IMG/VR virus record: IMGVR_UViG_3300031867_000003
Span: 128,001-192,000 of that record
Source of the DNA: a virus
Taxonomy: Duplodnaviria > Caudoviricetes
Direction: 5' to 3' (one strand)
DNA length: 64,000 nucleotides
Shown here: positions 18,666 through 44,253 of the stretch, piece after piece
Layout: the number at the start of each line of letters is the position of its first letter
How positions within the stretch are numbered: position 1 is the first letter of the stretch
Notes under the pieces: generated by a model
The model's database searches: none
Told to the model about the DNA's origin: nothing
Seen by the model: the letters and a program-made list of their open reading frames with translations, nothing else
Made by a program: the position numbers and the translations under genes

Positions 18666-18727
18666 GCGCAGAAGAGCAGTGAAAGGTTCTGCTCCCACTA
18701 GGTTAATTACTCCTAATGTTTCTGCGC
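18666..18727 (-). promoter_or_regulatory. Three-way-junction RNA motif, copy 1 (loop complementary to downstream RBS)
   Basis: P1 GCGCAGA/TCTGCGC; P2 CATTAGG-AGTAATTAA-CCTAGTG; P3 GGAGCAG-AACCTTTCA-CTGCTCT. Two TGAAAGG targets lie downstream. Confidence 0.7.
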
Positions 18728-19008
18728 AGATAATAAAAAATACCTATGACAGTATTATTTATTCAGTGGGAAGAATCTGTTTGATTAATTCCGGCGTTGT
18801 TATATTGTTATATACTGTTTTACGTCCTATAACAGATCACTCCCTTCTCATAAAATTTAACTTTCATCAACCAAATAATATTCTATGGTTAATGGTATTA
18901 CCACAAATTCCGTATTAGTTTGGAAATCTTCCATATAATGCGTTTTGCGCCGCCCAGTGGCCACCAGTGCGTTTGCTAGTGGCCACCCGGCGTTGCCAGT
19001 GGCCGGGG

Positions 19009-19755
19009 TTAATCAGCCACTTTTCGTTCAATCATAACGATGTAGTGTTTCGTCACCCGCTTGAGCAACGAGTTGGATGATACCTCATCCTCCATCAGCA
19101 TGGAGGGCCATGCCTTTGGCTCGCGCTGCGAGCAGATAATACAGCTCCTTGACAATTCATTCCGTTTTTCCAGGATGTCATACAGAGCCTTGACTTCATC
19201 ATCCTCTGTGATTGGGTGCAGAAGAAAGTCGTCCAGGATCACAAGATCAAGGTTAATGATCGCCTTTACCTTCTTCTGATACTGCTTGAATTCGATTTTT
19301 CTGGCCGCGGCAAGCTCACTTACGAGTTCATCGCAATGATAGTAACCTACACGATATTCCCGGCATGCTTCGGCACCAAGCGCTCTCGCAAGATAGGTCT
19401 TTCCGCTATCAGAAGCCCCGAAGATACAAAGGTTCATGCCTTCCCGTACAAAATCCAACGACGAAAGCGTATGGACGATATCCAACGGTTGGTACTGGCG
19501 CTCTTTGGAATCAACACACTGGTCAAGACAGCTGTCACTTCCTTTCAGTTTTGCCTTCTTCAGACGCGATGTATAGCGGTTTGTAATCGTTACGATATAT
19601 TCGGCGTGAATGATAGTACTGATCAACTCCAGACGTCCTGTATTAACAAAGGCCGGCTGCTTATAAAGTGTTTCAAGCTCTGCGGCCATATGCGGCAGTT
19701 TCAGTTCATCCAGCTCCTCCAGGATTGACTTCAGCTCCTTTGCTCCTGTATTCAT
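19009..19755 (-). CDS. istB: IS21 helper ATPase IstB
   Basis: Walker A GASDSGKT, Walker B LVILDD; overlaps istA stop. Confidence 0.95.
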   Translation of the reverse strand: MNTGAKELKSILEELDELKLPHMAAELETLYKQPAFVNTGRLELISTIIHAEYIVTITNRYTSRLKKAKLKGSDSCLDQCVDSKERQYQPLDIVHTLSSLDFVREGMNLCIFGASDSGKTYLARALGAEACREYRVGYYHCDELVSELAAARKIEFKQYQKKVKAIINLDLVILDDFLLHPITEDDEVKALYDILEKRNELSRSCIICSQREPKAWPSMLMEDEVSSNSLLKRVTKHYIVMIERKVAD

Positions 19756-21368
19756 TGCTGCGCCTCCTTTCCGGACTGATCCGCGAGGGTACGGCTGCGA
19801 TTCAGCAGTTTTTCCATGTCGGAGTAACTGCTGTCCATGATGTAGGAGCCTTCGTTCCGCTTTTTATTCTTATCGGTGTTGTAACCTTCAGAGCCAAGTT
19901 CTTCGGCTACCGCGCCAATGGTGGTTTTGATATAGGTGTAGGTCGTCCTCTCAGCAGCGAGAGCGCGCCTGCAACATTCCTCCAGGGCAGAGCGGCTGTA
20001 CTTCTTTGTGAAGCCAAGAACGCCCACACAGAGCCTGTAGGTCTGAACTTCCAGCTTCCGGCTCTTCAGGATCCGCTTAATTACTTCCGTAGTGTTGCTG
20101 CCAACTGTGGATGCTTTCCGGATAAAGTAGGTGCTGTTCCATTCCGAAAAATCCTCGTAGTTTTTCGGCAGACGGCTGGAGTCTGTTTTCCATTCGCCTC
20201 TGTAGGTTGCCCGTGGCCATTCGATAATCAGTTCGCCTTCGAGACTGAAGATCTTGACAACGGAGGCAGTTGCACGAATGATGACTTTTTTGTGCAGATA
20301 CGCTTTGTCTACGCTATAATAAGCATTGTCAAAGCGGATGTGGAAGTCGCTTGACACCTTTGCCGTGGCCCTCTCCATGTAATGGTACTGCGTGGAGGGG
20401 AGCGGCATCAGCTCTTCCTTTTCTTCTGCCCAATAGTAGGAGCGGCAATGCTCCTTCTTCTTAAACGGAGCGTCATTCAGCTCATCCAGCTTCTCCCAGA
20501 GGTCTTCATTGAACTGCTCAAGCGAGAAATATCTGCGTTCTTCCAGTTCATGGAAGAACCCTTTCTCGAGAATGCCAACCGCGTTTTCCACAGAAGATTT
20601 GAAACGGGGTTTCCGGACCTTGGCGGGAAGAATCACGGTGTGGTTGTGCTCCGCCCATTCTGCGTAGTCCTGATTCAGTTCCGGCTGTATCCAGTCCTTG
20701 TTTGCGATCACGGCCTGTTTGCAGTTATCGCAAACGACGATAGCGGGAACGCCGCCAAAAGCCTTCAACGCGTTGTTATTGACCTCGATCCACTGCATCT
20801 CCTTTGTGGATTCCATACCCTCAGCGTAGATGTACTGGGAATACGGAAGGATAGCAACAAATACGACGATCGGTGTGATCTCGCCGGTAAGACGGTTGAT
20901 CAGATCAAATGTCTTGCCTGCAAAGTCGACTTCCATCGTCTGGGCGATCACGGCTGTAAAGTGTGCTGTTTCGTAGTTTTCCTCGCACCACTTGCCGAAG
21001 AGCTCACAGAACTGCCGGTACTGGTATGGTTTCTTCTCCTCGGCATTGCAGCGCTTGACATACCGGTCCCAGCACACCTGAAGCGTCATGTTCTTTCTTT
21101 CGTTCATGAGCTTCAGAACCTTCGGGTAGTCGGGGTACTCGTAGCTTTCATCTCGACCGCCTTCGCCCGGCACTTTGCCATACACCTTCATGGCAATTCC
21201 GGCGTTTGTGATCCCGGGCGGGAGTGGGAAGTCCAGATCTTCGCACTTTTCGAATGCGTGGATAAACTTCTGTATCCCGGATTTGCTCATACCGGTTTGC
21301 CGGCTGATTTCTCTCACCGACAACTTGATCACGAAGTATTTGTTGAGAATGTCTCTGTAGTCTAGCAT
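19752..21368 (-). CDS. istA: IS21 transposase IstA
   Basis: N-terminal HTH; DDE motifs MEVDFAG, VCDNCK, KPRFKSSVEN. Confidence 0.95.
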   Translation of the reverse strand: MLDYRDILNKYFVIKLSVREISRQTGMSKSGIQKFIHAFEKCEDLDFPLPPGITNAGIAMKVYGKVPGEGGRDESYEYPDYPKVLKLMNERKNMTLQVCWDRYVKRCNAEEKKPYQYRQFCELFGKWCEENYETAHFTAVIAQTMEVDFAGKTFDLINRLTGEITPIVVFVAILPYSQYIYAEGMESTKEMQWIEVNNNALKAFGGVPAIVVCDNCKQAVIANKDWIQPELNQDYAEWAEHNHTVILPAKVRKPRFKSSVENAVGILEKGFFHELEERRYFSLEQFNEDLWEKLDELNDAPFKKKEHCRSYYWAEEKEELMPLPSTQYHYMERATAKVSSDFHIRFDNAYYSVDKAYLHKKVIIRATASVVKIFSLEGELIIEWPRATYRGEWKTDSSRLPKNYEDFSEWNSTYFIRKASTVGSNTTEVIKRILKSRKLEVQTYRLCVGVLGFTKKYSRSALEECCRRALAAERTTYTYIKTTIGAVAEELGSEGYNTDKNKKRNEGSYIMDSSYSDMEKLLNRSRTLADQSGKEAQQ

Positions 21369-21703
21369 AGGCTACCTCCTAATAAGAATCTCCATCGCTA
21401 TAGGTGGGCGTTCTCATTATAGGAGATAACGGTATTCAAAACTCAATAAACCCGGCCACTCGCTCCGCTCCGTGGCCACTTACGGCCGCATAAGCGGCCA
21501 CTGGGATCCGCCGTATGCAATATAATTCATAAGCACTATATCTGCGATATCTTTATCATATGTTTTAGTAGCCAATTCAATATTAGTTACAATTTCCCAT
21601 TTATGGTCATGTAATGAACGTAGATATACAGTTTTTCCTTCTGCATCAATGGAGGCTATTACATATTTATTTATAGTTTTTTCCAATTGCTTTCTCATAA
21701 TAT

Positions 21704-22837
21704 TTATTTCCTTTTAATTCCTTTATTATTTATTAGTTTTAAATTATCAATAACATAGTCAATGTCTGATTGTGTCGTTTCATAATCTAGTGAAAATCGA
21801 ATAGAAGCGTTTGCATCATCATCCGATAAACCGATCGCTTTCAGCACGTATGACGGTTCATCGGAATCTGAATTACATGCGGATCCGGTAGAAACATAAA
21901 TTCCACTCATATCTAACATTCGCAGTATCTGTTCTCCTCGACATCCCTTAAAACACACATTTAAATTTCCCGGTAATCGATTATTAAAATCTCCATTAAT
22001 AACTACGTTGTCGAATTCCTCTAAAAGCTTATTAGCAAAATAATTCCTTAAATAAAGAATGTTTGCCGTATCTTTTGAATTATTTAAATTCACAATTATA
22101 TCAGCAATGCAACCAAAACCAACAATTGCCGGCACATTTTCAGTGCCAGAACGCTTGCCAAATTCTTGTCCTCCACCATAAATAAGTGGTGATATATCTA
22201 TCCCGTTTTTCACATATAGGAATCCTATTCCTTTCGGACCATGAACTTTATGAGCACTTACACTCATCATGTCAATATTAAGTTTATTTACATCAATGGG
22301 AATATGACCATATGCCTGAACCGCGTCGGTGTGGAAGATTATATTATTTTGATGAGCAATTTCTCCAATTTCTCTTATTGGCTGAATAGTACCGATTTCA
22401 TTATTGGCACTCATTATAGATATTAGTTTTGTGTTAGGAGTTATGGCATTTTCTACATCTTTAGGATTGACTATTCCACCATTATCAACCCCTATATATG
22501 TTACGTTAACACCTTTTTTCTCAAGTGCCCAGCACTTATTTAAAATAGCATGATGCTCTATTACACTAGTTATTAAATGATCGCCAGGTTCGAGAATACT
22601 CAATGCCCAGTTATCACTTTCTGTACCCCCGAACGTAAAATATATTTCTTCGGGAAAACAACTAATTGTTTTTGATAAATTCTCCCTAGAAACATTTACA
22701 AGTTCTTTAGCTGCATTTCCGACCATATGAGTAGAAGAGGGATTACCATAATATCTAGAATATACACTGTACATTTCCTCTATTACTCCTTGATATGGTT
22801 TTGTTGTAGCCGCGTTATCTAAATATACTTCTCGCAT
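21704..22837 (-). CDS. iscS: Cysteine desulfurase (IscS/NifS family)
   Basis: YLDNAATT, YGNPSS, HTDAVQ, SAHKVHGPKG (PLP lysine), STGSACNS (catalytic Cys); AAGGAG RBS before ATG 22837. Confidence 0.93.
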   Translation of the reverse strand: MREVYLDNAATTKPYQGVIEEMYSVYSRYYGNPSSTHMVGNAAKELVNVSRENLSKTISCFPEEIYFTFGGTESDNWALSILEPGDHLITSVIEHHAILNKCWALEKKGVNVTYIGVDNGGIVNPKDVENAITPNTKLISIMSANNEIGTIQPIREIGEIAHQNNIIFHTDAVQAYGHIPIDVNKLNIDMMSVSAHKVHGPKGIGFLYVKNGIDISPLIYGGGQEFGKRSGTENVPAIVGFGCIADIIVNLNNSKDTANILYLRNYFANKLLEEFDNVVINGDFNNRLPGNLNVCFKGCRGEQILRMLDMSGIYVSTGSACNSDSDEPSYVLKAIGLSDDDANASIRFSLDYETTQSDIDYVIDNLKLINNKGIKRK

Positions 22838-22847
22838 AGTATTCTCC

Positions 22848-23084
22848 TTACGTAAGTTCATGCTTACACCATAAATCAAAATATTTCTTGCTCTGCTCCC
22901 GATTAAAAATAAAACATAATATCGGGTCTCCTGTGTTAAAATCCACGCTTATATACAAATCAAGAAGTTCACATCCATGTTTTAAATATAAAGTGGCTTG
23001 TCTTACATTAACTATGCGGACGCCGTCCTATGGATAATAATCTTTTCCCGTTATATCTGAATGAATATCATTAATGTCTCTCAT
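22848..23084 (-). CDS. Small hypothetical protein (78 aa, 1 TAG; absent from ORF track)
   Basis: MRDINDIHSDITGKDYYP(Q)DGVRIVNVRQATLYLKHG...FDLWCKHELT-TAA; fills the gap exactly. Confidence 0.75.
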
Positions 23085-23114
23085 ACCTTTTATTCCTTCC
23101 TTAAAAAATCGTAA

Positions 23115-23155
23115 AAAAAGGGGACAACCACAAAACGAATGTGTAGTCGTCCCCT
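23115..23155 (-). terminator. Rho-independent terminator
   Basis: AGGGGAC..GTCCCCT stem followed by a T-run on the - strand. Confidence 0.6.
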
Positions 23156-23211
23156 AATATGTGATCCGGTCATGCCGGTTCACTCCGTATCTTATAATCA
23201 CATTCACTAAT

Positions 23212-23715
23212 TTATTTTGCCGCAAATTTTGGCTTAATCTTCTTATTCTGATAACTCTTATTTTGGTTATCATTCAGAGGTTTATTATCTTCAATAGTCT
23301 TATCGCCATCCGAAGATATCTCAGCTTCTTCATGTTTCACATCTGAGACTTCGGGATTAACTTCCGGTGTCTCATTTTTTAACGCTGACATAATTGCCTT
23401 GGCATTAGTAGTATCAATCTGCTGAAGCTGATTAATCGCGTCTTTCACCCAATCCGGAAGCTTCTCAACATACTCTTTATCAAGCGTAAGTTCGCTAAGT
23501 CTAGCAGCTTCAATTTCCGGCTTAAGCCAATGATTTAAAAATCCAGCAGTAATATTGTAAATCTCTTTACATCTTTCAGAACAATATGCGTCCATCCAAC
23601 GCGGTAATCTATCAAAGTCTGAGCAATTAGGGCAATACTGATATGTCGAAGAGCAAATAGTACACTGCCTTTCAAATTTCTTTTTTGCCATTGTCGTTTC
23701 CTCCTTAGTAATCAT
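23212..23715 (-). CDS. Cys-rich (zinc-binding) hypothetical protein
   Basis: CTIC..YCPNC..YCSERC motifs. Confidence 0.7.
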   Translation of the reverse strand: MITKEETTMAKKKFERQCTICSSTYQYCPNCSDFDRLPRWMDAYCSERCKEIYNITAGFLNHWLKPEIEAARLSELTLDKEYVEKLPDWVKDAINQLQQIDTTNAKAIMSALKNETPEVNPEVSDVKHEEAEISSDGDKTIEDNKPLNDNQNKSYQNKKIKPKFAAK

Positions 23716-23879
23716 AATTTTTCACTATATATAAAACGGATTATAAATACCGTATTCTTTTCAATATTAAATAAAATAACGAATGTATGATTTAGTGCTT
23801 GATAATTAATTTAAAATGTTTTTTGAATAGAGCCGCCGGATTTGACCCCGGCGACCCCAGATTATTTATAAATAATAAA

Positions 23880-25098
23880 TTATTCGTCTTCCTCGTCATC
23901 TTCAACAACATAGATGCTATAAAGTCTCTTATCAGCGTCGCAGTAAGAAACCTGAAGCTGTCCATTAAAGTCGATAGTTTGGTTGTCGGAACTCAGTGAC
24001 ACTTCGCTTTCCGGCGATACCTGGAAGGACGGAATGTCGATATATGCTGCACGAAGTGTATCTGCGGAGCAAGGATCGACACAAAGAACCTTGAGAATAA
24101 GACGGATAGTTCCCGGGAACTTATCAGCTTTATTAATCATCTCAACAGCACCAGCTGTTGCGGCTGTGCCGTCAAGTTCACGATCATAACGAATCATGTA
24201 CTGAGTATAATCGTTGCTAAGCGGAAGAGTAAGAACTCCCGTCCCATCATCATAAGTAAACGTAGAAGCTGTAGCACTACCACCAGTCTGGAATGCAGTA
24301 CCAAGAGTACCGTTGTTCTCCATGCCATATACCTTCGGAGTGCCGGTTACATATTTAAGAGTAACTGTCGGACCATTAGATGCCTTAGCAATTGTGATAC
24401 CAGGTGCGGTAATTTTATGATTTGCAGTAGCCTCAATTTTACCGGAACCCGCTTCAGAACCAAGAATATTAAGATTAATGAAAGCGTTAGTTGCGGTAAA
24501 CTCACCAGTTTTTGCTCTCCAGAAACGTTTCACGAGGTTGCCGTCTTTATCGGTAACATCATTAGATTCTGCGGTAATATTAAGAGTAGCTTCCTAAAGC
24601 TAGGTGAGTGTATAGAGAACGTTGCCGTCAAAGTCTTCAGCAGTTGCGACCTGGATACGGTCAATAATCAAATCCTAGTTTTCTTAAAAAGAAAAATGTT
24701 CACATGGGGTCGCTAGTCCCATGTAGTTCTCAAATGAACTTCTTATTGTTTCCAATAAGTACAGACTATATCTTATTCTACAGCATTACCTGTTTAGACC
24801 TAACCATTTCGAGAGTCAATAGCTTACTCCCTACTTTCTCTTATGAGAAATAGTCGTTGAACCTTACCTTACGGTCTTGGCTGCTGATTGCCCATTGTTA
24901 ACGGTACTTAGGATTTAACCATATACCATATAGTAATTTTTTTCTACTTTCGTAGCTCTCACGTATATATCTATTAGATATTGCGTTGTAGCTTCACTAT
25001 CTTTAGGGGTTCCCAGCAATTAGATTAGTTATTATAATTATGACATATACATATTTCTATATATGCTGACTAGATTATTAATCAAGCTTGAATGCCAT
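23880..25098 (-). CDS. Major tail (tube) protein, 270 aa; exon 1 25098-25081, exon 2 24674-23880; 2 TAG
   Basis: AAAGGAG RBS. The spliced product reads MAFKLD|DLIIDRIQVATAEDFDGNVLYTLT(Q)L(Q)EATLNITAES and continues into ORF 23880..24533. Function is inferred from position and composition. Confidence 0.8.
24675..25080 (-). ncRNA. Group I intron in major tail gene (406 nt)
   Basis: P1 CTTGAT/GTCAG with U.G; P AATTGCTGGGAA, Q GGCAATCAGCAGC, R GTTCAACGACTA, S AAGATATAGTCT; terminal G; P10 AATC/GATT. Confidence 0.93.
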
Positions 25099-25169
25099 AA
25101 TACATTTCTCCTTTCATAATATTTTTTATCATTTTATTGTATTAACCGATTATTTCGGGTTATACCAAG

Positions 25170-25973
25170 TTATTTATTATCACTATTTAAATCTCTCATA
25201 AAATTAAATGATTCCTTTGGAACTTTAGACATGTCCGCAAATCCACTCATACTACCGGCTAACAGCGCCCGTGTATTTTCATAGATTTGTAAACGCTGCA
25301 CAGAATCCATAAACACAACATAGTTAATATCCTTAAGCTACTCAAGATTGTACTTAAACCCGGGATGATTAATGCATGCAGAAACTAACGGCAACAATGC
25401 GGAAGTAGGAGCATCCCCATCTTTTTTTTGACGAGCCAAATTCTGCTCATCCTCCCAAATAATTGCCTCCTTCGTCGCTTTACCTTTGGCTTTTTCAACC
25501 TTAGGATGAATGTTGAAAGCAGTGCGATAATACTCTGAAATTGTAGTATAATCCTCTTCGCTAATTTCTATATCATCTGCGGCATCATAAAGAGTTACTA
25601 CCTATGAATCAACCAGATTACCATCTTCATCCTCTTGCTAAACATTTTTGGCATATAAGTCGAATTTCTCCCAGTCTATGTCTCCAAATAATAATTTTGT
25701 AACCTCAGGAGTTTGACCTTTATACAACATAAGGAATAACTGATAATCTGTTATTTTATTCCAATCAACGCCAGCATTCCAAAGTTGAAGCCGATATGTC
25801 GTTGGATTACTGACCCATATATTTAGCGAACTGTAAAATGAAATGTCCGCATCAGGCAAATAAAGGATGTCACCAATTGTCGGAATATATAGTGTCATAC
25901 CATTGCCGACTTCATACGGTAGTCCAAAATACATTTTTAATGGGTTGAATTTAAACTCGCCCATATTAACCAC
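25170..25973 (-). CDS. Tail-region hypothetical structural protein (~267 aa, TAG read-through)
   Basis: ORF 25638..25973 continues past TAGs to TAA 25170 (...PLVSACINHPGFKYNLE(Q)LKDI...). Confidence 0.75.
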
Positions 25974-26532
25974 CTATTTTATTTACTACACGCGAAACAT
26001 TGTCTTTGGTTTTAACAATGTCTTTGCCCATAACCATTTCGAACGTTATAGTGCGAGTAGCATAGTCATTATCCGTAACAGACGGCAAATCCGACAGCAC
26101 ATGACATTGTGTTCCAAATTTATTTGTCCAATTAAATAAATGTTTTATTCTGGCAGCAATTAAATCGTGACGAGCAATACCGGTAAGTTTTTCAATACCG
26201 TTCTTTTCTTCACAAAGTATATAGAAAATAATATCTACATACATAAGACTGTCATTGTATCGAGGGGTTTCTTTAAATTGCACCTCATAACAAATAAAAT
26301 TCTACACATTGTGCTGAGTAGGATGAATCATGTAGTACGGAAGTATATTAACATCTAAATAATCGCTTGGGTCTGCATTCTCATCCTCAAGTTCCTTGTT
26401 GTTTAATAAATAAATAATCAAAGGATCATCTATGAGAGTTTTTTTAATAATTTCTTTAAAACGAATATTATTATCATCCATTGTAATCTTATAGGCACGA
26501 AGTTCCTGAAGTTGTTCAGTTGTTAATTCCAT
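25966..26532 (-). CDS. Putative tail completion/neck protein (188 aa, 1 TAG)
   Basis: ORFs 26302..26532 and 25966..26283 are in frame, joined by one TAG; GGAGG RBS. Confidence 0.7.
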
Positions 26533-26545
26533 AACTCATACCTCC

Positions 26546-29282
26546 TTACAACGCAATGATTTCAATTGGCAACGAAGCAATTATATCTTCGCCGTCAACT
26601 TTATATGTTACAGTAAGTATTTTGCCGATATACGAATCGTCTCCCAAGAACTTAACCTTAACATGATTATCTATTACAGATAACGTCAGCAATTCTTGTG
26701 GAACAGAATTCCCGTCTATAGAAAATTCCCAAGTACCGGGAAGTGTATCTATCGACGTACCGTCTTCGTCGGCAAATACCACGGTGAATGTTTTGGCAGA
26801 GCCGCCTATACGAATCTGCTGTTTACCTGAGCATGTAATTGTAGTAGTGGTAGTGGGAGTTGGGATAATATCATCTACCGGAACAGCCGGAGTAGGTTCT
26901 ACTTCACTAGCTTTCCAATCCGCCCACCAAGCAACTACATTGCCATCAACATCATAATCAGCTTTAAGTGTATGTTGATTAGCAAGATCTTGCGCACAAG
27001 TAAAAATCGCAATTCCTTTAGAATTTGAACGATTTATTTTACTAATCTAAAATACGCGAGGTTCTGTTAATACGTTGGCATCTATCACCAAGTAAGTGTT
27101 ATAATATAAATGTTCCGTATCACGATTTAACGGAAGACAGAACTAGGTCTAGTCTTCTGGTTGCTAAAATTTATACATATACGTTACTTTATCAAGTCGT
27201 TAATTTGATAAAGAATTATTTAATTCATTTAAAAAAGCCAAATACTTAGAATGTTTTCTTTCTAAATATCTATTCGCATCATAGTATAACCAATCCATGA
27301 TTTTTATTACATTCTTTTTGCTTAATGTTTGAAGAACGGATGTAATATCATTTTCCTCTGGATGAGCGAGTTGAAGACTTAAATTTACACCTAATTTATT
27401 TTGAAATATTTTATTAACACTATTACAAAAATCAAATGTAGATATTATCTTAAATCCACACCTTAAAAGCCCATTATCTTGAAACGTATAAAAACTTCCG
27501 TCCCCGTCAAAATAACCCCTTATAAAATGTGAATGTAAAAAATCTGGAATGTCTGGGAACGTCAACATCAAACTTTTGTTTTGAACCATTCCTTGCTCTA
27601 CTAAAGAATTTGATAAATGTTTACTTGATAGTTCTAAGCATATCTATGGTTTAACATTATCAGCTTTTATTAATCTATCTCCAATATACGAATCTCTTTT
27701 AATAATTTGTCGCAGTGGTCTATTAGATCCTATATCTTCACTAAATTTTTCTATTATTTCACGATCATCAATTTGTAAGTCTAAATGTATCGCATTCCTA
27801 GGAACATTATTACAACCATCCGCATACAATAATCCCAAGTAATATGCCTTATCTTGGGTATCTATTATATCAAAATACTCTTCATTTAATGAATATTTTC
27901 TACGACCAGGATTCTTTATTCCTAGATTAATAAATAATTCAGATATAAATCTCTAGCTAACATTATTTTCTTCAGATAATTTTTTAATAGATTTCCCAGA
28001 CTTATATTCATCGATATGGTTATCAATATTCTCCAAAAACAATTTTCTATTGTATTTTGCATCTTTATTATACATATAATTAATCCTCCTTCAAAAGATA
28101 TAATGTATGCTATAATAAAAACAGTAATTTTTATGTTGAAGGCATAAAAAAACGGTTTGCAACCCGCTGTCCTGTTTTTATTCAAAATGATTAAATAATT
28201 TTTCTTATACTTTCATATAAGATCGGACTATATCTTTAACCGCAATTGCGGTTACTTCCCACTGGACTTACTTGAGCCACTTAGTCTCTGAACTTTACCC
28301 TCATCAAGTCTTAGCTGCTGATTATCCAATATAATATATTTTTTGACTATCACGCTTAGATGTATCTCATTATTACGTTGTAGTTATACTATCTCTAAGG
28401 AAGTTCCAGCAATTCAAGAAGTTTTCATCGTATTATTACTAATACGTGCGACTATTTCTAATCGAGCCATAATCCACTCATTATGTTATCATAAGGCTTT
28501 TTATCCTTATCTCTTACTGTCGCCAGTAAGATCAGCATATGTTTTCTCCATATCATTAACTTGACTTAGGAGTCGGACACTCGTGGGAATATTATATTTA
28601 TTCAATTCCTATGCGTTACAATACTTCGCAGCCTTTCGCTATCTGCGAAGTTATCTCGGCGTTGTCTACGAGAGAGTTCCACCGATTTTGCCCGATTTTC
28701 ACTCATAAGTTTCCTTATAAGGCAACAATTTTTATTGTAAGAATTTTGGCTCCTGCTGACCCCAGGGAACTCATAATATTTCCCATCTTTAATCCAGCGG
28801 AACACTTCGTCACAACGAAGTACTTCCCAAGTCGGAAACATATTTTCATCCCGGTCAGCTGTAGCAACCACTAACCATCTACGGTATATGTCATCTTCTC
28901 CCTTTAGCCAAACATAAAGACCAACTGGATATCTAGCTCTATACCGCTTACCAAACACTTCTTCGTAATAATCAACACCGCACTCATGACCTGGTCTAAA
29001 CTAAATATGCATAGTCTATTCATCTTTTTGAAATGTCTTAGAACTATGTGCAATAAATTTCACATCTATAGGGGTTGGATTTGTATCCTCTTCCGGGTTA
29101 AATCCTTCAAGACGAAGTCTATTCTGCGGCGCGGTATGGTAGTAATCGAAGAAATATCCAACCTAATACTAAACATCCTATGCAAACGTAGCATCCATGA
29201 TTACATCACTTTGCTACTTCCTCGCCCTCCCCGGTACACTAATATTATTGTGCATTGCCTAAAAATCTCTGTAGGTAATCAT
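26546..29282 (-). CDS. Putative head-tail joining protein, 398 aa; exons 29282-28734, 28478-28461, 27175-26546; many TAG
   Basis: The spliced junctions read GVSRSQNSYN|SGLWLD|YKF(Q)QPED(Q)T(Q)FCLPLNRDTE; all three exon lengths are multiples of 3; AGGTGA RBS. Confidence 0.82.
27200..28075 (-). CDS. Intron-encoded double-motif LAGLIDADG homing endonuclease (291 aa, TAG read-through)
   Basis: AYYLGLLYADG and HFIRGYFDGDGS motifs in one frame; GAAGGAGG RBS. Confidence 0.9.
28114..28182 (-). promoter_or_regulatory. Three-way-junction RNA motif, copy 2
   Basis: P1 AATAAAAACAG/CTGTTTTTATT; P2 GCGG-GTTGCAAA-CCGT; P3 TTTTTATG-CCTTCAA-CATAAAAA. The loop is complementary to TTGAAGG at the endonuclease RBS. 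Confidence 0.7.
28479..28733 (-). ncRNA. Group I intron (255 nt, no ORF)
   Basis: P1 CAAT/GTTG with U.G; AAAATCGGTGGAA (P), CGCCGAG (Q), variant P7 GCATA/TATGC; terminal G. Confidence 0.85.
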
Positions 29283-29283
29283 A

Positions 29284-30077: not shown

Positions 30078-30092
30078 GGGATACCTCCTTTA

Positions 30093-32546: not shown

Positions 32547-32604
32547 AACTATATTTTCTCCTTTCTTATTTTTTATATAAAAAAATAATAGGCTAAATAA
32601 CCTA

Positions 32605-34173: not shown

Positions 34174-34207
34174 TTTAATTATCTCCTTTCAAATAAAAAA
34201 AGAATCC

Positions 34208-34420
34208 TTAATTAAACTTAGGATTCTTGGTGTTTTTTACATATTTATGATTGACTTTTGGTCTTTGATCTAAATATTTTTTTAAATTATCCGTAAACAA
34301 AAACATCCAACACTCCCTATGAGTTTCTGGATGTGTTGTTTTTGCTATATATTTCTCCCCGATATTTTTTAATTCTTTACAAAGAGTGGGAGAATAGCAA
34401 TAAAAAATATTAGTATTCAA
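34208..34420 (-). CDS. Small hypothetical protein (70 aa)
   Basis: FYCYSPTL...HPETHRECWMF; AGAGG RBS, TTG start. Confidence 0.65.
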   Translation of the reverse strand: MNTNIFYCYSPTLCKELKNIGEKYIAKTTHPETHRECWMFLFTDNLKKYLDQRPKVNHKYVKNTKNPKFN

Positions 34421-34436
34421 TTAAAATTTACCTCTT

Positions 34437-36110: not shown

Positions 36111-36157
36111 ACTTCCTCCCTTCTTTTTAGAATTTCTCTCCAAAGAATAGGAGAGTA

Positions 36158-36340
36158 TCAAAATGTTATTTTATTTGTAAAATTTACCTTCATACTGTCA
36201 TCAGCAGAAAACATTAAATTGGTATTATTAATAAATACCCACTGAGTGCCTTCCTTTGGAAGTTCTTCATAGCCGAGTTCTCGCAACTTCTCGGCGGTTT
36301 CTTCATCAGATGTATGAATAAAAAATTGTTTATCCTTCAT
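36158..36340 (-). CDS. Small hypothetical protein (60 aa)
   Basis: AGGTGA RBS; MKDKQFFIHTSDEETAEKL. Confidence 0.7.
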   Translation of the reverse strand: MKDKQFFIHTSDEETAEKLRELGYEELPKEGTQWVFINNTNLMFSADDSMKVNFTNKITF

Positions 36341-36344
36341 AATA

Positions 36345-36617
36345 TCACCTACAAACATCATTAATTATGTCGGCAGTTTTCGTAAGTTCTTCACGGGTCT
36401 TTTCACTAAACCCAGCGTCGGCAACTAATGCCTACGCAAGATATAGACAAAAGTTTAGAAGAAATTCATCCTCTACATCAGTAGTAGATTCATCACCATT
36501 AAATATCTTATCTGATATTTGATTATATTTTTCTATACACTCGGTTGTATTCGGGTAAAAATTTTTCATTATCCTTTTTATCTCCTTATTTATTCTTTTT
36601 TTAATTATCATAATCAC
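36345..36617 (-). CDS. Hypothetical protein (~90 aa, 1 TAG)
   Basis: ORF 36432..36617 reads through TAG to TGA 36345; start uncertain. Confidence 0.45.
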
Positions 36618-36681
36618 AGAATAGGAGAGGGGTTAGGACACCTCTCCGTATAAAGTTTGTAACTCCTTATATTATTCTGTG
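36615..36681 (-). promoter_or_regulatory. Three-way-junction RNA motif, copy 3 (directly 3' of the suppressor tRNA)
   Basis: P1 CACAGAATA/TATTCTGTG; P2 TATAAGG-AGTTACAAA-CTTTATA; P3 GGAGAGG-TGTCCTAACC-CCTCTCC. Confidence 0.7.
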
Positions 36682-36685
36682 TGAG

Positions 36686-37002
36686 CGGCGGAGTTGGGAC
36701 TTGCACCCAAACCGACGGGCTCAGAACCCTGTAGTTTTCTTACCACATTATGTTTCCATAACCGAATATTATTCGTTGTAGTCTGGGACATCTCATTACC
36801 ATATTTAATAATATATTAAACTTAGGTAGAAGCTCTATGTCCTCCACACATTTATAAGATATAATAATCTTAATTTAGCTCGGGATTGCCATATACAAAA
36901 CGTACTTAGGTGTTCCCCGAATTAGGCTTCTTTTCAATTGTATTTTTCAACACAATGCTCCAAAACATCAGAGACTACCTGTGCTGCTTACACCACTCCG
37001 CT
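36686..37002 (-). tRNA. Amber suppressor tRNA (anticodon CUA) split by a group I intron; exons 37002-36970 and 36738-36686 (86 nt mature, CCA not encoded)
   Basis: Spliced form: acceptor AGCGGAG/CTCCGCC, D arm GTGT-AAGCA-GCAC, anticodon arm GTAGT-CTCT|AAA-ACTAC, extra arm GGGTT-CTG-AGCCC, T arm TTGGG-TGCAAGT-CCCAA, G73. Confidence 0.85.
36739..36969 (-). ncRNA. Group I intron within the tRNA anticodon (231 nt)
   Basis: P1 exon CTCT / IGS GGAG with U.G at the splice site; P10 GTTTT/AAAAC; P AATTCGGGGAA, Q GGCAATCCCGAG, P7 GGACAT/ATGTCC; terminal G. Confidence 0.88.
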
Positions 37003-37060
37003 AAAACAATAAATTAAATTATTAACGCAATGCCACGTTAAATCCATCAAATAAAATAAT

Positions 37061-37084
37061 AGAGCGGGAGATTAGTCCCGCTCT
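37061..37084. terminator. Hairpin (terminator or processing site) upstream of the tRNA
   Basis: AGAGCGGGA-GATTAG-TCCCGCTCT perfect stem. Confidence 0.5.
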
Positions 37085-37094
37085 AAATTACTAA

Positions 37095-37502
37095 TTATAA
37101 ATATTTGTCATAAAATTCATCATTAACTAAATCAACAACTTTATCAAGAATATCAAGGTTTTTAATGGCATCATTTAATTCTTTATAAAGATATCTATTC
37201 GGAACAGGATTATGTGCTACGTCTCCATAGACACGAAAATCATGCTCTGCACAATCTACAAAAGATTCACATTCAGTTTCATCTATATTATAAAATACTA
37301 CGCCAACTGTCTCTTCATATTTCCCGGTAGAATCATTATATTTGCAAATCAAATAATTATCATCTGGATAATCTGTAGACTTAAACCATGATATAATTTC
37401 ATCACCTGGTTCATTATCACAACTATAAATAACATCATAATCAACACGATAAACCGCACCACATATACTTAATATATTATTTAGTTTTAGAATTTTATAC
37501 AT
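37095..37502 (-). CDS. Hypothetical protein (135 aa)
   Basis: AAGGAG RBS; open ORF. Confidence 0.65.
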   Translation of the reverse strand: MYKILKLNNILSICGAVYRVDYDVIYSCDNEPGDEIISWFKSTDYPDDNYLICKYNDSTGKYEETVGVVFYNIDETECESFVDCAEHDFRVYGDVAHNPVPNRYLYKELNDAIKNLDILDKVVDLVNDEFYDKYL

Positions 37503-37528
37503 TCACTTCTCCTTTTATATCCTTTAAT

Positions 37529-39109
37529 TTACGCAATTGTACTGCCCGTATTTCTACTTCTTTCAGCACTACCGCTTAAATCATCATCGTCCGACCTAGG
37601 TCTTCCGACCGTGTTACTGGAAGTATTATAACTTGATTTCAAAGGTTTCATCATATCTTTGATACCAATAGCATTCTCAAACCTAATCTTGTTAATTGCC
37701 TTATACGGTGTTCCTTCAATAACAGATAAATAGTCCAATGCCGGACCACCTAATGTTGCGGAATCTTTATATCTTTGGATATAATCATCCTCATTAAACC
37801 AGGTTATTCTCAATATCTCAAAGATATACCCCTTAGATATATTTTCCGCAATATAAAAATTCAGCCAAGATTCCAACCTATTTACCCAGACCCACACATT
37901 TGATTGATCCGCAAGCTGAGCAAATTTAATAGCTAGATTAGAAGTAGAATTTCCACCGGACACAACTGTTTGTGTTAATCCGCTGTTGGAAAACAGATTA
38001 TTTATAGATTTCGCTAATGCATCTGTATCCGACGCATGTGACGTATCATTAAACGTAATTTTATCAATGTCGAACGGAGCAGTAATAACACCGACCAAAT
38101 CCGGCACTGACTGTTCCTCAAGCTGTCGAAAATAATTAACCATCTCCATTGAGATAGCAAAATCATCAACATCCCCGCTGTTACCATTATCCACTAACGG
38201 TATCTTATTCACAATCAAAGCATAATTCTCAAGTTCTGTTTTAGATTGAAGAATCTGCTGCAAATCAAGTAAATCTAATAAATCCGTAAACAGCGGAAGA
38301 AAATATGGCAATGGGAACGAGAACTCATCTTCCGGACCAATCAATAAAACACAACATTTTTCAGGCGGTAATCTAAACCATTGATAATCACGTCCGCCAT
38401 CCTTATATGAACGGTATCCGTTAATAAATACCTCATCCCAAGTTGCATAACTTCCTTGCCCATCAACTCCGAGAACAAACTCACTGTTGTTAGCAGCGTC
38501 AAAAAATGCAGCATTAAAATATACGACCCATTCTCCATACTCATTTTTTCCGACTATTCTGCAATATTGAACGTCTAGCGGCATTAAAAAAGTTCTTCCT
38601 TGTTTATTCTCATAAACGTACCCAGCATAAAATCCGTCACGGATTGCAAGATATAGTGCGGTATACATATCTTTCTTCAGACTAAACTTGTCAAAAGTCT
38701 CGAGTACTTTTTGATAACCCTTGAGCGCCTTATCCACATCTATCTCTTCGGCTAAATCATTTGCTTGAGTAATTGTATAATAGAACAACGGCATCGCCGC
38801 CATATACATAATCATCTTTTGATACAACATTGAATTCCTAACTAAAAATCTCGAAATTTCTCGAAGAGTATCTTGATTGTTAGCCGGAGACTAAACATAT
38901 GTTTTTACGAGATCTTTAGTATATTGCGTGAAAGTTCTGTTTACAGACCTAGTGGCATTACGCTGAAGAATTTCTTCCATCTTGGCAAATGTCATCGTTT
39001 GCGCACGATCACGCTTATAAGAAAAATCCTCCACATCCGCGGGGATTGTAGTTATTTTAGTTTCATTATTTTTGGGGCCGCCGTCAGCGGTTTTCTTTCT
39101 TGTTGCCAT
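37529..39109 (-). CDS. Portal protein (526 aa, TAG at codon 73)
   Basis: Fragments 38891..39109 and 37529..38830 are in frame; follows terminase; C-terminal PLKSSYNT..VGRP is typical; AAGGAGGTG RBS. Confidence 0.85.
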
Positions 39110-39124
39110 ACGGCACCTCCTTCA

Positions 39125-40882
39125 TTATTTAAATCTGGTTACTTTTCTAGGTTGGCGGAATGTAAATTGAGAGAATAGAGAGTTTATATCTTGGTTTTTC
39201 GGTCTCAACTTTAACTCCAACTAACACGCACACCAATAATTATAAGCAATAGAAGAGTAACGGTCTTTACGCATACCTGACTATTCTTTAACTTTAATGT
39301 TACCATTCTTAACCTCATGATCGAGTTTAATTAATTCATACTCTGCCATAGTTGTTTGCAAATACGGCATCTTTATATATGCCTAATCAGTCGGAGAGAG
39401 TTTGGAATAGGGTTTATATAATTTTACCAATTCCTCTTCACATTCTTGTTCTGAAATAAGAAAGCTAATTCTACCATTCTATATTCCATTTCTAAGCAAT
39501 ACACATATTTCGTTATTGAAAGTTGCACCAGCTTTTACTGACCAAACAACTTTATTTGCATCTTTAACTTTACATCTAATAGCCATGTCTTCATCATTAA
39601 TGCACGTTAACGCTTTATATGTTTTTCCAGTCGAAGAATCATATTGATCCTTACAAATAAAATCGAAAATTCCAATTCCTAGTCCTCCTGTATCAACCAC
39701 TAAGTCAGTGCATTTGTATTCATAGAAATAACGCATAACAATAATCCCAAGTTCGTCAGTTGTTAACCCTTCGAAAGTTTCTCCGTAAACTACATTTGAA
39801 TGATAACTTATGTCATCCTACTGAATCGCACTATTGATATATAATGCAGCTGCGTCATTCTTCTTTTTCTTTGTTGATCCCATAAGAGCTACGTCAACAG
39901 AAAGAATTCGTTTTTCTGTTGCAGAAACATCGGGGACTTTGATTTTATCATTATAGAATTTTAGTGGTAATAAGGCGTTTTTGATTTTTCTCTATTTATT
40001 TATCTCTTCCCACTTAAAGAGATTATCACCATCATCTCCGACCCACATACATTCCATTTCCATAGTAAAAGCAAGTTCATTAAAGTCAGCTTCTGATTTT
40101 TCATCCATTACTTGATCTTTGGACAAAAGACCTTCTTTGATGCTTAATTGATATGGTAGTCCACAGCAAAAATATCTCTTAGTGTCATCGAAAAAATTAA
40201 CCACATATGCTTGTAACTTTTTCCATGCCCATGAACTTTTAAAATAAGCACTACTCATATATATTTCTTTATTTCTTTCTTGCAGATGAGAATACTCTGG
40301 CTTATTTAAATATCCCGGCTATCTAGGACTCGTTAAAAATTTACGAATAACCAAATTCAAAATAGTCTCATCAACCATACGAAACTCATCAACTACAATG
40401 ATATTCGCTCTAGCACCACGAGCATTATCTGTACTAGTTCTTGTTGTAATCCAAGAACCATTTTTAAACATAATAATTGCATCATTCTATCCTATGTTAC
40501 ATTTTTCTATTTCAGTACATAAGATAGGAGACATTTTCATTAGTTCATCCTGTATTTTTAACAATACTCCATTTGCCTATTTAAGAGTACCGGAACAAAC
40601 AACAATCTTACTACCAGGATATAATATACATCTTACAACACAAAAGAGCGCAGTAAGCCAACTTTTTGACATACCCCTTGCGGCAATAAACATAAAGTAA
40701 TTATAATGCATCATCGCCCATATTAATATCTTCTAAAAAAGCTTAAGGTGTATGCCTAATACTTCTTCAACAAACCGCTCTGGATTTGCACGATAATAAG
40801 CTGCTCTAAAAGCAACTGTCTACATTATTTTCTGTTCTTTGTCCTGAGCAATTTCACGAACAGATTTCTTTTTTTCAGCCAT
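39125..40882 (-). CDS. Terminase large subunit (585 aa, multiple TAG)
   Basis: LKLF(Q)KI, Walker A ARGMSKS, Walker B IIVVDEFR, coupling motif YMSSA, RNase-H motifs LSVDVA and KDRYSS. Confidence 0.93.
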
Positions 40883-41937
40883 CACAATTCCTCTGTGGTT
40901 CCGAATATCTGATCAAATAGAGTTTCGGAATCTGTATCTTCATCGTATTGTGGTTTATCAACTGTGTATTTTTTGATAAACTTTTCATACGTATGAGAAA
41001 ATGCATTTTTTAGTCCCATCATACGAGACATATGACCTTTAAAAAATACATCAAGATAAAGTCCTATTTTATTAACTGAACGAAATTCTTCGTCAGGCTC
41101 AGGAATAGGTTTTTCATTTTCCCATTTTTGTATCAACTGCCCAAATGTTTTAGCCTCTGTAAGTGCATTGGAATTATTTTGATTAGGTTTTAATGACATA
41201 CTCCCCATTAAATCTTGAAGCGTTTTATCTAATTCCTTTGTATCTTTACCAGCCTTTTGGGCCTTATCTATATCTAGTTCTTTAAAGCATATACGTTTAA
41301 ATAATATTTCTTGTGCCTTATTTTCACAAGCATAACGCTTTATCCAATCTTGATATTCTGTCTCTAAAAAAATTAAATCAGAATTTGTATACCCATCACC
41401 AAATCGTTTTTTGGCTTGTTTCAGAGTTCTAGAATTTTCGTTTATCTCTTCCTCATCTTTATCGAGATAATCAGGGGGAAATTCTGAGTCTCTCCAGCTT
41501 TTATTTTTATACTGAAACAGACTTTTTACCATTACGATATACTGACTCCATGCGGTTCCTCTATGTTTATCTTGTATATCCTCAGAGGTAGACGAAACAG
41601 CAGATTGATATAAAGAATCAATATAGGGCAAATCCATCATTCTAAGTACATCCATTGTTTTATCCCGATTATCAGTATATTGATTCGTTTTCTTATCATA
41701 ATCACAAGCCATTTTAATTAAACATTTTTTGCAAATTGGAAACAGCCCACTTGAGTAACTTTTATCCGAATAAAAAGCATCGGTATTGTGGAACTCATTA
41801 CATTTTGGACATAGAAATACATCCCCATTTATTATGCGATTATAATCCTTAGCTAATTTATTATATTCTTGTCTAACCTAAGCGACCCCAGTTTTTCTAA
41901 TTTCCTCCTCTGTAAGTGCTTGTTTTAATCTAATCAT
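40882..41937 (-). CDS. YonG-like protein upstream of terminase, possible small subunit (351 aa, TAG at codon 20)
   Basis: Read-through extends ORF 40882..41712 with CPKC...CKKC; TFGQLIQKWENEKPIPE motif. Confidence 0.7.
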
Positions 41938-43067
41938 AAAATACCATCCTTTTTATCATAACTCCACTTATATCCTTTATAACTATCTATAATACCCTTG
42001 CAACAATCACTTATGTTGCTCATATTAAATCCATCAACTACAACATCGGATAATCTATTATATGTTTTAATTAGTACCCCATCCAAATCCAGTTGTAATA
42101 TTTTTCCACGATATCTTTTTCTAATAGTATTACATAACTCATAACATTTTTCAGGAGTAAAATAATCTAAATCTTCCTCATAACAAAATACAAATCCCTT
42201 TACTGTATTTCTTTTCCTCTGACAACATTCCCTAACCATCCTAATATGAAAACCACTCCGTGTAACATCATGCATAGAATCATACATTTTTACAATAGCC
42301 CCATTTTCATCTAATTGAACAACCCTTTTAGCCTTCATCCTATTATGTACATTATTTATATATTCTAGATATTCATCTGTTAATATATAATAATCATCCT
42401 CATAAATATAAATATAACCATGAGACACCAAAGTCCCATTAGTCCTTGATCTTATTGGATTATATCCTAATTCTAATCTCGCTATTTTACACGTTTCCCA
42501 TTTTTTAAGAATATTCCCAGATAAATCACACTGTAGTACAGGTGCAACTTTTCTTTCATCAAAATACCACTGCAAGCTGTCAAAGCCATGATAGTCTTCT
42601 AAGAAACAAAATATATATTTGTCTACCCTCTTTATTTTTTTATGCACACATAAATATATTGCGCTAGGATCTATATTTAGTTCTCTGGCGGCCTGCGGGA
42701 CATTGTTCCATTCTTTAATTAGGTTTCCAGACAAGTCAAATTGTAATACTACATGTATACACGAAGTACCTTGCCCTCCAAGAGTATTATTGTACCCATT
42801 ACAATCAACAAATCCGTGATATGTCCTTAATCTATCTATCCAATATATTTCTTTTTCGTCTAATTCATTTTCATTACATAATTCAATAATGGAAAAATCA
42901 AATTTATTTTCACCATGCTTATTCCACGAACTCTACAGATGACTATTCCCATGTTGATTCTTATTTAACAGCCTTTTATGGTCTTTCCATCTTCTGTTAA
43001 TATCAACAGCTTGACCAACATACATTTTCCCATTATCCAAATTAGTAATTTTATAAATTCCAGTCAT
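41934..43067 (-). CDS. GIY-YIG homing endonuclease with NUMOD1-like repeats (377 aa, TAG)
   Basis: MTGIYKITNLDNGKMYVGQA..RRW..HL(Q)SSWNKHG..GYN; repeated VLQxDLxG units; AGGAGG RBS. Confidence 0.9.
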
Positions 43068-43087
43068 AACATTCCTCCTTTTCATAA

Positions 43088-43117
43088 CAAAAAAGAGAGG
43101 GAGTGATTTCCCTCTCT
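43088..43117 (-). terminator. Rho-independent terminator
   Basis: AGAGAGGGA-AATCAC-TCCCTCTCT followed by a T-run. Confidence 0.7.
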
Positions 43118-43163
43118 AAGCAGTTATTCCGTCAGAATGTAGCCAGTATCATCACTGGTAAAT

Positions 43164-43232
43164 AGAATATGTACGACTCGAACGTCTCCCCTTCGTCCCA
43201 GGCGAAGTGTGCTACCATTACACCACATACTC
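43164..43232 (-). tRNA. Divergent tRNA or pseudo-tRNA, anticodon TGG (Pro-like)
   Basis: Acceptor GAGTATG/CATATTC, D arm GTGT-AATGGTA-GCAC, anticodon arm CTTCG-CCTGGGA-CGAAG, T loop TTCGAGT; short T stem and C33. Confidence 0.6.
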
Positions 43233-43313
43233 TAAAATAATAAATTTCACCACGGGAATCGAACCCGAAGCAGAAGAGTAGTAGTTACTCTCCCGCGTAC
43301 CAACCTAAACAAA

Positions 43314-43415
43314 TCAATGTGTTATTAATTTAACAACATTGCAAAATGCAACCGTCATACTCCAGCCACCAAGAACAGCTACAAGGTTGCAAATAATTTT
43401 GTCACGTAGGCGCAT
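43314..43415 (-). CDS. Small hydrophobic peptide (33 aa)
   Basis: Perfect SD AAGGAGGTGA; MRLRDKIICNLVAVLGGWSMTVAFCNVVKLITH. Confidence 0.55.
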   Translation of the reverse strand: MRLRDKIICNLVAVLGGWSMTVAFCNVVKLITH

Positions 43416-43590
43416 AAACTCACCTCCTTAAAAATCAGCTTTCCAAAAGTTGACCTATAAGTCAAAAATTGGAATCAGATATAACATCTGGAAATTATAT
43501 CAAAAAGCAGACGACATTTCTGATTCCAGAAATTATTTATATTTAAATATATACTTTAATAAAACGACAAAATCGCCATAAGATAACTCT

Positions 43591-44148
43591 TTATCTTTTT
43601 TGTTTTATTTCTTGAAACTGAATCTTTGCCCATATGGAGTCTTCATAAAACTTTATAATCCAAGGCTCAAATTCAATACCTCTACACAATATAAACGGAT
43701 TTACAGTAATCCATTTTTGCCCGCCACGTACATGAAATCCAATAACATCCTTATCTTTTAAAGAATTCATTATTTTCCTCAATGTATCATACTTCATATT
43801 TCTTATTTCGGCTAAGTCCTTAATCGACAAAGCTTTACCACGAGCATCTCCGTTTTTTCTTAAGACGCAATCACCATAGCAAACAAAATGTATAAGAAAT
43901 ATTAAAGTAGCGACTTCTGGATTTGTAAGTCTTTTATCCAATTCTAATTCAACCCCTCTGAACAATTTAGAGAAAGTATATTCTGTCATAAACGGAATGC
44001 GTTCATCTTCCTCGGCATTATCCGGTACGGATTCTTCAATAATTATCCTATAATTCTTATTTTCTTCCGGCTCAATTATTTCACCAGTCTAGTCATTAAA
44101 TACTTTTCCCAAATTATTTAATACGGTTCTCTTAGTTTTATTTTTCAT
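43591..44148 (-). CDS. RepL-like/winged-helix DNA-binding protein (185 aa, TAG at codon 20)
   Basis: FND(Q)TGEII, LSIKDLAE..YDTLRKIMNSLKDKDVIG, TVNPF; paralogous to 58968..59555. Confidence 0.65.
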
Positions 44149-44184
44149 AATCCTCATCCCTTCTCCATCCGATTATTAAAATCA

Positions 44185-44249
44185 GCGGAATAGGACACTC
44201 GGATGATAAATGTCCCCATAAGGCTCATGACTTCCTCATGTTTATCCGC
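44185..44249 (-). promoter_or_regulatory. Three-way-junction RNA motif, copy 4 (directly 3' of tRNA-CAT)
   Basis: P1 GCGGATA/TATTCCGC; P2 CATGAGG-AAGTCATGAG-CCTTATG; P3 GGACATT-TATCATCCG-AGTGTCC; targets TCGGATGG and GGGATGA lie before ATG 44148. Confidence 0.7.
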
Positions 44250-44253
44250 AAAG

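Follow-up and report, generated by a model that had tools for sequence, protein, structure and literature searches.

Three-way-junction leader RNAs with a loop complementary to downstream target sites precede homing-endonuclease genes of phages

The subject of this study is a small structured RNA that recurs in a 64,000-nt stretch of phage DNA, positions 128001-192000 of the 202-kb IMG/VR record IMGVR_UViG_3300031867_000003, which occurs in bovine-gut metagenomes. The window is, in the following, this whole stretch. We found that the element belongs to a widespread RNA family that is real and absent from Rfam, with 60-70-nt leaders 5' of homing-endonuclease and similar phage cassette genes. 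The RNA folds into a three-way junction with two hairpins, and the loop of the second hairpin is complementary to short sites in front of the downstream start codon. Comparison of sequences established the fold, the pairing of loop and site and the association with nuclease genes. The element probably represses translation of these genes; this repression and the manner in which two sites are used are what we infer from the comparison.

Four such elements had been pointed out in a first-pass annotation of the window, and RNAfold confirmed all four in place, returning one three-way junction for each. The sense strand is the minus strand, which is the gene strand and the direction of the window genes. 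A closing stem surrounds hairpin 1 and hairpin 2, and junction nucleotides are almost nil. Minimum free energies of copies 1-4 were -27.1, -18.3, -24.5 and -24.0 kcal/mol, with z-scores of -4.8, -3.0, -3.7 and -2.9 against shuffled sequences. For all four copies the antisense (plus) strand folded less well than the sense strand. The hairpin-1 loops read as had been annotated. The copies, their loops, targets and genes were as follows (bit scores refer to the covariance model R3, described below):

18666-18727, minus strand: leader RNA copy 1, 7-bp closing stem, 70.3 bits with model R3, fold z = -4.8
18703-18711: copy 1 hairpin-1 loop AGUAAUUAA, palindrome UAAUUA
18680-18688: copy 1 hairpin-2 loop AACCUUUCA, pairing part CCUUUCA
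18650-18656 and 18632-18638, minus strand: copy 1 target UGAAAGG, present twice, complement of loop CCUUUCA
18169-18630, minus strand: HNH-type homing endonuclease gene behind copy 1 (Pfam HNH_repeat PF18780, E = 7.8e-6)
28114-28182, minus strand: leader RNA copy 2, inside a group I intron, 21 nt past P9
28156-28163 and 28136-28142: copy 2 hairpin-1 loop GUUGCAAA, palindrome UUGCAA, and hairpin-2 loop CCUUCAA
28088-28094, minus strand: copy 2 target UUGAAGG, running into GGAGG, complement of loop CCUUCAA
27200-28075, minus strand: intron-encoded LAGLIDADG endonuclease gene behind copy 2, 291 aa with TAG read as Gln (LAGLIDADG_3, E = 4.9e-5)
36615-36681, minus strand: leader RNA copy 3, beginning 3 nt past the 3' end of an intron-containing CUA tRNA, 61.2 bits with R3
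36656-36664 and 36631-36640: copy 3 hairpin-1 loop AGUUACAAA, imperfect palindrome UUACAA, and hairpin-2 loop UGUCCUAACC
36345-36569, minus strand: 74-aa open reading frame behind copy 3, family not detected
44185-44249, minus strand: leader RNA copy 4, beginning 3 nt past a tRNA-like sequence (44253-44327), 58 bits with R3
44224-44233 and 44201-44207: copy 4 hairpin-1 loop AAGUCAUGAG, palindrome UCAUGA, and hairpin-2 loop AUCAUCC
44166-44172 and 44154-44159, minus strand: copy 4 targets UCGGAUG and GGAUGA (overlapping-type)
43591-44157, minus strand: gene behind copy 4, 188 aa with TAG read as Gln

The complementarity between hairpin-2 loop and leader that had been annotated for copies 1, 2 and 4 was recovered, with perfect complements of 6-7 nt located at most 45 nt before the start codon. 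In copy 1, the second site is found 10 nt upstream of the AUG at 18621-18619 and the loop:leader duplex amounts to -8.4 kcal/mol; in-frame candidate starts of this gene are 18642 (UUG), 18630 and 18621 (AUG). The copy 2 site overlaps the Shine-Dalgarno (SD) sequence GAAGGAGG, 12 nt upstream of the AUG at 28075. In copy 4, CAUCCGA (44199-44205; two nucleotides in the hairpin-2 stem and five in the loop) pairs with UCGGAUG, and UCAUCC pairs with GGAUGA, a site that overlaps the start codon AUG at 44157-44155; the loop:site duplex has -7.5 kcal/mol. A dedicated target search found no complement of the copy 3 loop nearby, as the earlier count of three copies out of four had implied, and copy 3 is so regarded as an orphan or decaying copy. 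The genes behind copies 1 and 2 are indeed the two annotated endonucleases. For the 188-aa protein behind copy 4 the label 'Rep-like' is unsupported, since nothing was found for it in Pfam, PHROGs or PDB sequences.

Aligning the copies with MAFFT gave results inconsistent with the structure. Therefore, a covariance model was seeded from two gap-free relatives and iterated from R1 to R3. The first relatives were obtained with a structure descriptor from 44 loci around homologues of the neighbouring terminase gene. IMG/VR was searched by pattern scans keyed on hairpin 1 only and then by R3; hairpin 2 and the leader were not among the retrieval criteria. These scans gave 45 members from uncultured phages, and whole-record searches of ten related phages revealed 0-2 copies per genome. 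The intron-borne class, comprising copy 2 and a homologue in the same intron context (L034:19538-19607), was missed by R3 and found with a Python descriptor. By BLAST, one member was detected in Bacillus phage vB_BanS-Thrax2 (ON548418, leader at 18479-18573), where it sits directly behind a TTGACA-17-TATACT promoter and directly before an annotated HNH endonuclease gene. A BLAST match in Escherichia phage Gostya9 comprised a hairpin-1-like fragment only (10 bits) and was discarded as probably due to chance. Bacterial genome contigs were scanned with an 18-base pattern, and the number of hits was close to the chance expectation; only the 21-23 hits that fold as a junction were used as further members. 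Their contigs, metagenome-assembled genomes and isolates, are labelled Firmicutes, Bacteroidales, Spirochaetota, Planctomycetes, Deltaproteobacteria and Elusimicrobia.

The shared fold was borne out by covariation. In the alignment of 45 sequences, compensatory changes were present in 21 of 22 pairs and 94.7% of the cells were paired, a percentage that is inflated because the alignments were fitted to the model, which affects the count of compensatory pair types less. As a control, the 3' partner was slid, and 46-55% of the cells were then paired. A smaller alignment of 13 sequences, subject to the same inflation, gave 96.1% paired cells and 19 of 22 compensatory pairs. The stems include G-U pairs. 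The first-pass annotation had left the element without a named family, and none came up here: Rfam had no match to any of the four copies even at E <= 1, nor to 17 member loci, and no description of the family was found in the literature on the motif sequences and on homing-endonuclease leader RNAs.

Pairing was then expressed as the best Watson-Crick match between the hairpin-2 loop and the 60-nt leader, for 40 distinct loops. The mean match was 6.4 nt in the member's own leader compared to 4.3 nt in the leaders of other members (z = 14; 0 of 5000 permutations). Control means were 3.8 nt for the member's own upstream sequence, 3.4 nt for a copy of the loop in sense orientation and 3.75 nt for the hairpin-1 loop. 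Two or more sites were present in 70% of the own leaders, but in only 10% of the cross comparisons. The independent set of bacterial contigs gave z = 8.4, with two sites in 58% vs 9%, and pairing was also seen in the held-out members L046, L057, L061, L105 and L249. That loop and target covary, as first read from the copies in the window, now holds for about 60 independent members.

In nearly all members the leader contains a complement of the member's own loop, as a rule in two places 8-21 nt apart. Loop UUUCUAUCCU of L094 is matched by the site AGGAUAGA, present twice, loop AACCUCAUUC of L147 by two copies of GAAUGAGG and loop UCUACCUAC of L039 by two copies of GUAGGUA. Other members have two different sites: GAAAGGUC and GAAAGGU for loop AGACCUUUC of L141, GCGGAUG and GGAUGUAAAA for loop UUUUUACAUCCGC of L104, and UGAGUUGG and GAGUUGGUA for loop UACCAACUCA of Thrax2. 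Compensatory exchange was evident in two comparisons. Loop AUACUCGCA of L021 goes with UGCGAGU and GCGAGU, and loop AUUCUCGCA of L024 with UGCGAGAA and CGAGAA. Likewise, CCUUCAA/UUGAAGG of copy 2 corresponds to CCAUAA/UUAUGG in L034, where the site is present twice. The sequence of loop and site is arbitrary and changes in a compensatory manner.

Three members, L011:7883-7950, L109:8765-8830 and L104:4869-4937, follow a tRNA-Asn. Their closing stems and hairpin 1 are nearly identical; hairpin-2 loops, matching sites and nuclease genes are all different. In these three it appears that the module of loop and site was exchanged, or that it diverges much faster than the scaffold.

Between the end of the second site and the predicted start codon there are 0-12 nt. 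The leaders are little structured (0 to -8 kcal/mol), and local pairing of the sites is infrequent, with P(unpaired) of 0.68. Loop:site pairing, at -7.5 to -13 kcal/mol, is comparable in strength to anti-SD:SD duplexes, for which a 16S tail served as the scale. Two members labelled Bacteroidales, L252 and L278, have the sites UGUUAGC and GAUUGGC, which are not SD-like and are positioned 0-4 nt before the AUG. Therefore, the common denominator seems to be occlusion of the initiation region, and not mimicry of the anti-SD as such.

An inverted loop copy and two direct copies in the leader could also be DNA operators, bound by the nuclease or by another DNA-binding autoregulator. A precedent is I-TevI, a transcriptional autorepressor (cited in PMC3014915), and short repeated sites near a promoter are typical of operators. 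However, the same sites occur before unrelated proteins. The loop is identical in L108 and L127, and of their sites only the second shows a difference, of one base, in front of unrelated proteins; L030 and L109 have similar sites and again unrelated proteins. Conversely, the proteins of L100 and L127 are 59% identical, but their loops and sites differ. Sites that are independent of the encoded protein argue against operators for that protein and fit RNA-RNA pairing. Moreover, the inverted copy is always placed in the apical loop of a covarying sense-strand hairpin, which a DNA model leaves unexplained, and the G-U pairs in the stems and the better folding of the sense strand also speak for an RNA. 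We therefore consider DNA operators very unlikely.

For repression by pairing, we propose the following course of events. The three-way junction would present the hairpin-2 loop, which would pair with one or usually two tandem complements within the 30-45 nt ahead of the start codon, a stretch that otherwise has no structure. As the second site spans the SD or the start region, pairing would mask the initiation region from the 30S subunit and keep the level of nuclease low. In the intron-borne copy, pairing would in addition prevent ribosomes from entering the intron while it folds.

An mRNA can be protected by a stable structure at its 5' end, and the junction could instead be such a stabilising cap, a tRNA-like processing signal or the terminator of the upstream unit, with the pairing activating or positioning ribosomes. 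The persistence of orphans without target (copy 3, L027), the proximity of some copies to tRNAs and the U-rich tracts behind many closing stems would agree with this. Yet the leaders contain no inhibitory structure that could be relieved, so that pairing over the SD or start can only mask, and the strongest signal in the data is covariation with the initiation region. Furthermore, neither standard ARAGORN nor the Rfam tRNA model called any of the four copies as a tRNA; such a call was obtained for copy 3 only, in the mitochondrial mode of ARAGORN only and amid many doubtful calls. A cap or activator is unlikely on this evidence.

Several points weigh against masking by pairing, in addition to the inflated percentages mentioned above. 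Copy 3, L027 and the near-identical L021a, L131 and L171 keep the fold, and a target site was not found in them; the scaffold may thus have a second role, or these copies are relics. A single loop cannot fill both sites together, and a simple pseudoknot in cis therefore leaves the covariation of both sites unexplained. Full pairing of the 10-11-nt loops of L108 and L124 would be sterically strained unless the hairpin opens.

Behind two of the orphans, L027:10-75 (68 bits with R3) and 36615-36681 (61 bits), there is no recognisable nuclease gene.

We then turned to hairpin 1, whose loop contains a 6-nt palindrome of the form U-N1-N2-N2'-N1'-A with purine flanks in most copies. The loop classes UAAUUA, UCAUGA, UAGCUA, UUGCAA and UUCGAA differ by symmetric double changes. 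Among six distinct hairpin-1 loops found without a palindrome criterion, five had perfect palindromes, and the four copies in the window carry four different hexamers. The two central bases of the palindrome are adjacent and cannot pair within one loop, which points to an intermolecular contact, that is a kissing dimer, or to a ligand with two-fold symmetry. Palindrome, distinct hexamers and doubled target together suggest that two junctions may dimerise and occupy both sites. Tentatively, the leader might be a modular and programmable homodimeric RNA repressor, in which the hairpin-1 loops kiss and the two hairpin-2 loops clamp the tandem sites. If true, it would do with RNA what a dimeric repressor protein does on a two-site operator, and the differing palindromes and loop/site pairs would prevent cross-talk among the copies in one genome.

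The stem-loop 1/dimerisation initiation site (SL1/DIS) of human immunodeficiency virus type 1 (HIV-1) is a hairpin with a loop of 8-10 nt that contains a 6-nt palindrome. The leaders resemble it in the self-complementary hexamer exposed in a hairpin loop of this size, with purine flanks in most copies (AG-UAAUUA-A, AAG-UCAUGA-G). This likeness is one of form only: the hexamers of the putative dimer here are AU-rich and the biological context is unrelated.

A sub-family (L187, L208, L213, L141, L133, L190, L249 and others) has the junction sequence AUAG before hairpin 1 and GAYAAG before or into hairpin 2. Its hairpin-1 loop AAGUCAUGAG is nearly invariant in contigs assigned to many phyla. This conservation exceeds what a dimerisation hexamer needs, and a conserved ligand or tertiary contact is possible.

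In architecture, the closest known analogue is the C4 RNA of phages P1 and P7. C4 has about 77 nt and three stems, is encoded immediately in front of its target within one transcript and is excised by RNase P; specificity is set by its variable loops, which bind a pair of adjacent sites that includes one at the ribosome binding site (RBS) (PMC5320573). C4 uses two different loops (a' and b') for two different sites, with b' at the RBS, whereas here one variable loop faces two like sites. The other loop, that of hairpin 1, is here a conserved palindrome without a downstream complement (mean match of 3.75 nt, background). The gene context differs as well, with homing endonucleases here and an immunity/antirepressor operon for C4. 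The C4 model RF01695 had no match in window positions 17500-45500 (E <= 1) nor in the whole 202-kb genome (E <= 10).

A variant of repression by pairing, and not its opposite, is that the junction, like C4 of P1 or CI of phage P4, acts mainly as a separate small RNA in trans, released by termination at a U-tract or by tRNA-type processing, and works as a homodimer joined through the palindromic hairpin-1 loops. We regard this as possible, though doubtful. The release of C4 by RNase P and its binding of two adjacent sites provide a model for it. A single loop covaries with both sites, and at least two loops per mRNA are hence needed; the palindromes cannot pair within one loop, and four different hexamers in one genome are expected if each copy pairs only with its own kind. 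In addition, the 8 nt past the closing stem are U-rich (49% U vs 23% in the background; runs of at least four U in 44% of the members), and 7 of 46 members begin directly, 3-4 nt, past the 3' end of a tRNA. The latter count was made with ARAGORN on the upstream 150 nt only, and it missed the tRNA before copy 3 and the tRNA-like sequence before copy 4. Some members might thus be terminated or processed to give a free small RNA. On the other hand, many members have no U-tract and AU-rich closing stems, which makes termination doubtful there. In L141, L136, L224 and Thrax2, promoters of the TTGACA-17-TATAAT type lie immediately upstream of the junction, and the mRNA then simply begins with it; position +1 of a consensus promoter is where such members start.

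A role of the junction as intrinsic terminator was also considered, and it is only partly tenable: U-tracts are present in about 40% of the members, the intron-borne copies have none, and a scan for terminators was negative around copy 1. The gene strand around this copy (18560-19060) contained no recognisable promoter.

Functionally, the closest analogues appear to be the RBS-sequestering hairpins of I-TevI, I-TevII, I-TevIII, mobE and segB. Such structures restrain the three I-Tev genes and mobE of phage Aeh1, with T4 segB implicated; for I-TevI, translational repression aids splicing of the intron (PMC3014915). The T4 tRNA region, in which segB is located, also yields two stable small RNAs, RNAC and RNAD, which have no assigned role (PMC3014915). 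The likeness is that an RNA structure in a homing-endonuclease leader would mask the RBS, both for intron-encoded and for free-standing genes. The T-even structures are local hairpins with the SD or AUG in one strand, which is freed by a late promoter inside the structure. In contrast, the leaders described here are locally unstructured, the apical loop of a junction 25-60 nt upstream is the pairing partner of the site, which is usually doubled, and recognisable promoters precede the whole element. Furthermore, one homologous scaffold is used across nuclease families and host phyla. The family is therefore neither a T-even hairpin, as it has no local SD hairpin and no internal promoter, nor a C4 RNA, as it has no match to the model and only one variable loop. 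The T4 scheme, in which the junction would insulate from read-through and an internal promoter would give the translatable mRNA, was rejected, since the recognisable promoters are upstream of the junction.

The proposed association with mobile nuclease genes was supported by the tallies from Pfam and PHROGs for 36 downstream proteins, which are mostly homing endonucleases. Pfam revealed DUF4379 treble-clef fingers (9), which mark zinc-finger nucleases, GIY-YIG, several HNH families, LAGLIDADG, PD-(D/E)XK and NUMOD. In PHROGs, most downstream proteins fall into the families 'HNH endonuclease', 'homing endonuclease' or 'intron encoded nuclease'.

Copy 2 and L034 are located within group I introns, after P9; the core of the copy 2 intron matches RF00028 at 28204-28481 with 80.6 bits, and the intron-borne copies lack the U-rich tract. 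With both of them 21 nt past P9 of an RF00028 intron, and copy 3 near an intron-containing tRNA, the elements might be regarded as peripheral P9.x domains of group I introns. However, neither copy 1 nor copy 4 nor most of the relatives lie in an intron, many relatives are directly behind promoters or tRNAs, and copy 3 follows the 3' end of its tRNA and is not within the intron. We give this explanation hardly any probability.

Homing endonucleases are the commonest selfish genes of phages. To our knowledge, restraint of their expression is known from only a handful of T4-type hairpins. Here, one conserved RNA scaffold is common to nuclease genes of at least five unrelated catalytic families, in phages and in prophage-like contigs assigned to many bacterial phyla, among them hosts in which SD pairing is little used. 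Loop and targets that vary freely and still match would represent a natural form of 'programmable' translational control and a ready part for synthetic riboregulators. Doubling of the target, together with a self-complementary loop, may point to a natural regulatory RNA dimer, which would be rare if true. The member in the cultured Bacillus phage gives experimental access.

Further features of the window were the following (introns by Rfam):

5970-6255, 24742-25093 and 28204-28481: group I introns, RF00028
28513-28744 and 36783-36974: weaker RF00028 matches (33 and 29.7 bits)
c[36685,37002], minus strand: tRNA with anticodon CUA (amber reader) and a 231-nt insert (ARAGORN -i); the weak group I match 36783-36974 is inside

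Many open reading frame fragments in the window join once TAG is read as a sense codon, and the tRNA with CUA anticodon fits this apparent sense reading of TAG in the phage. On the minus strand at 44253-44463, two tRNA-like sequences with the anticodons CAU and UUU were called by ARAGORN in mitochondrial mode only. Neither standard ARAGORN nor the Rfam tRNA model called this pair, including 44253-44327 directly upstream of copy 4, and they may be non-canonical phage tRNAs. At 41934-43161 (minus strand), a GIY-YIG/NUMOD homing endonuclease follows a tRNA-Pro (43162-43234) and has no three-way junction. Its leader contains only a plain GC-rich hairpin and a U-run (about 43090-43118), followed by AAGGAGG; the leader RNA is thus not used by every nuclease cassette in the window. 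At 28204-28744 (minus strand), the strong intron 28204-28481 is directly preceded by the weak RF00028 match 28513-28744, and tandem introns in one gene are possible.

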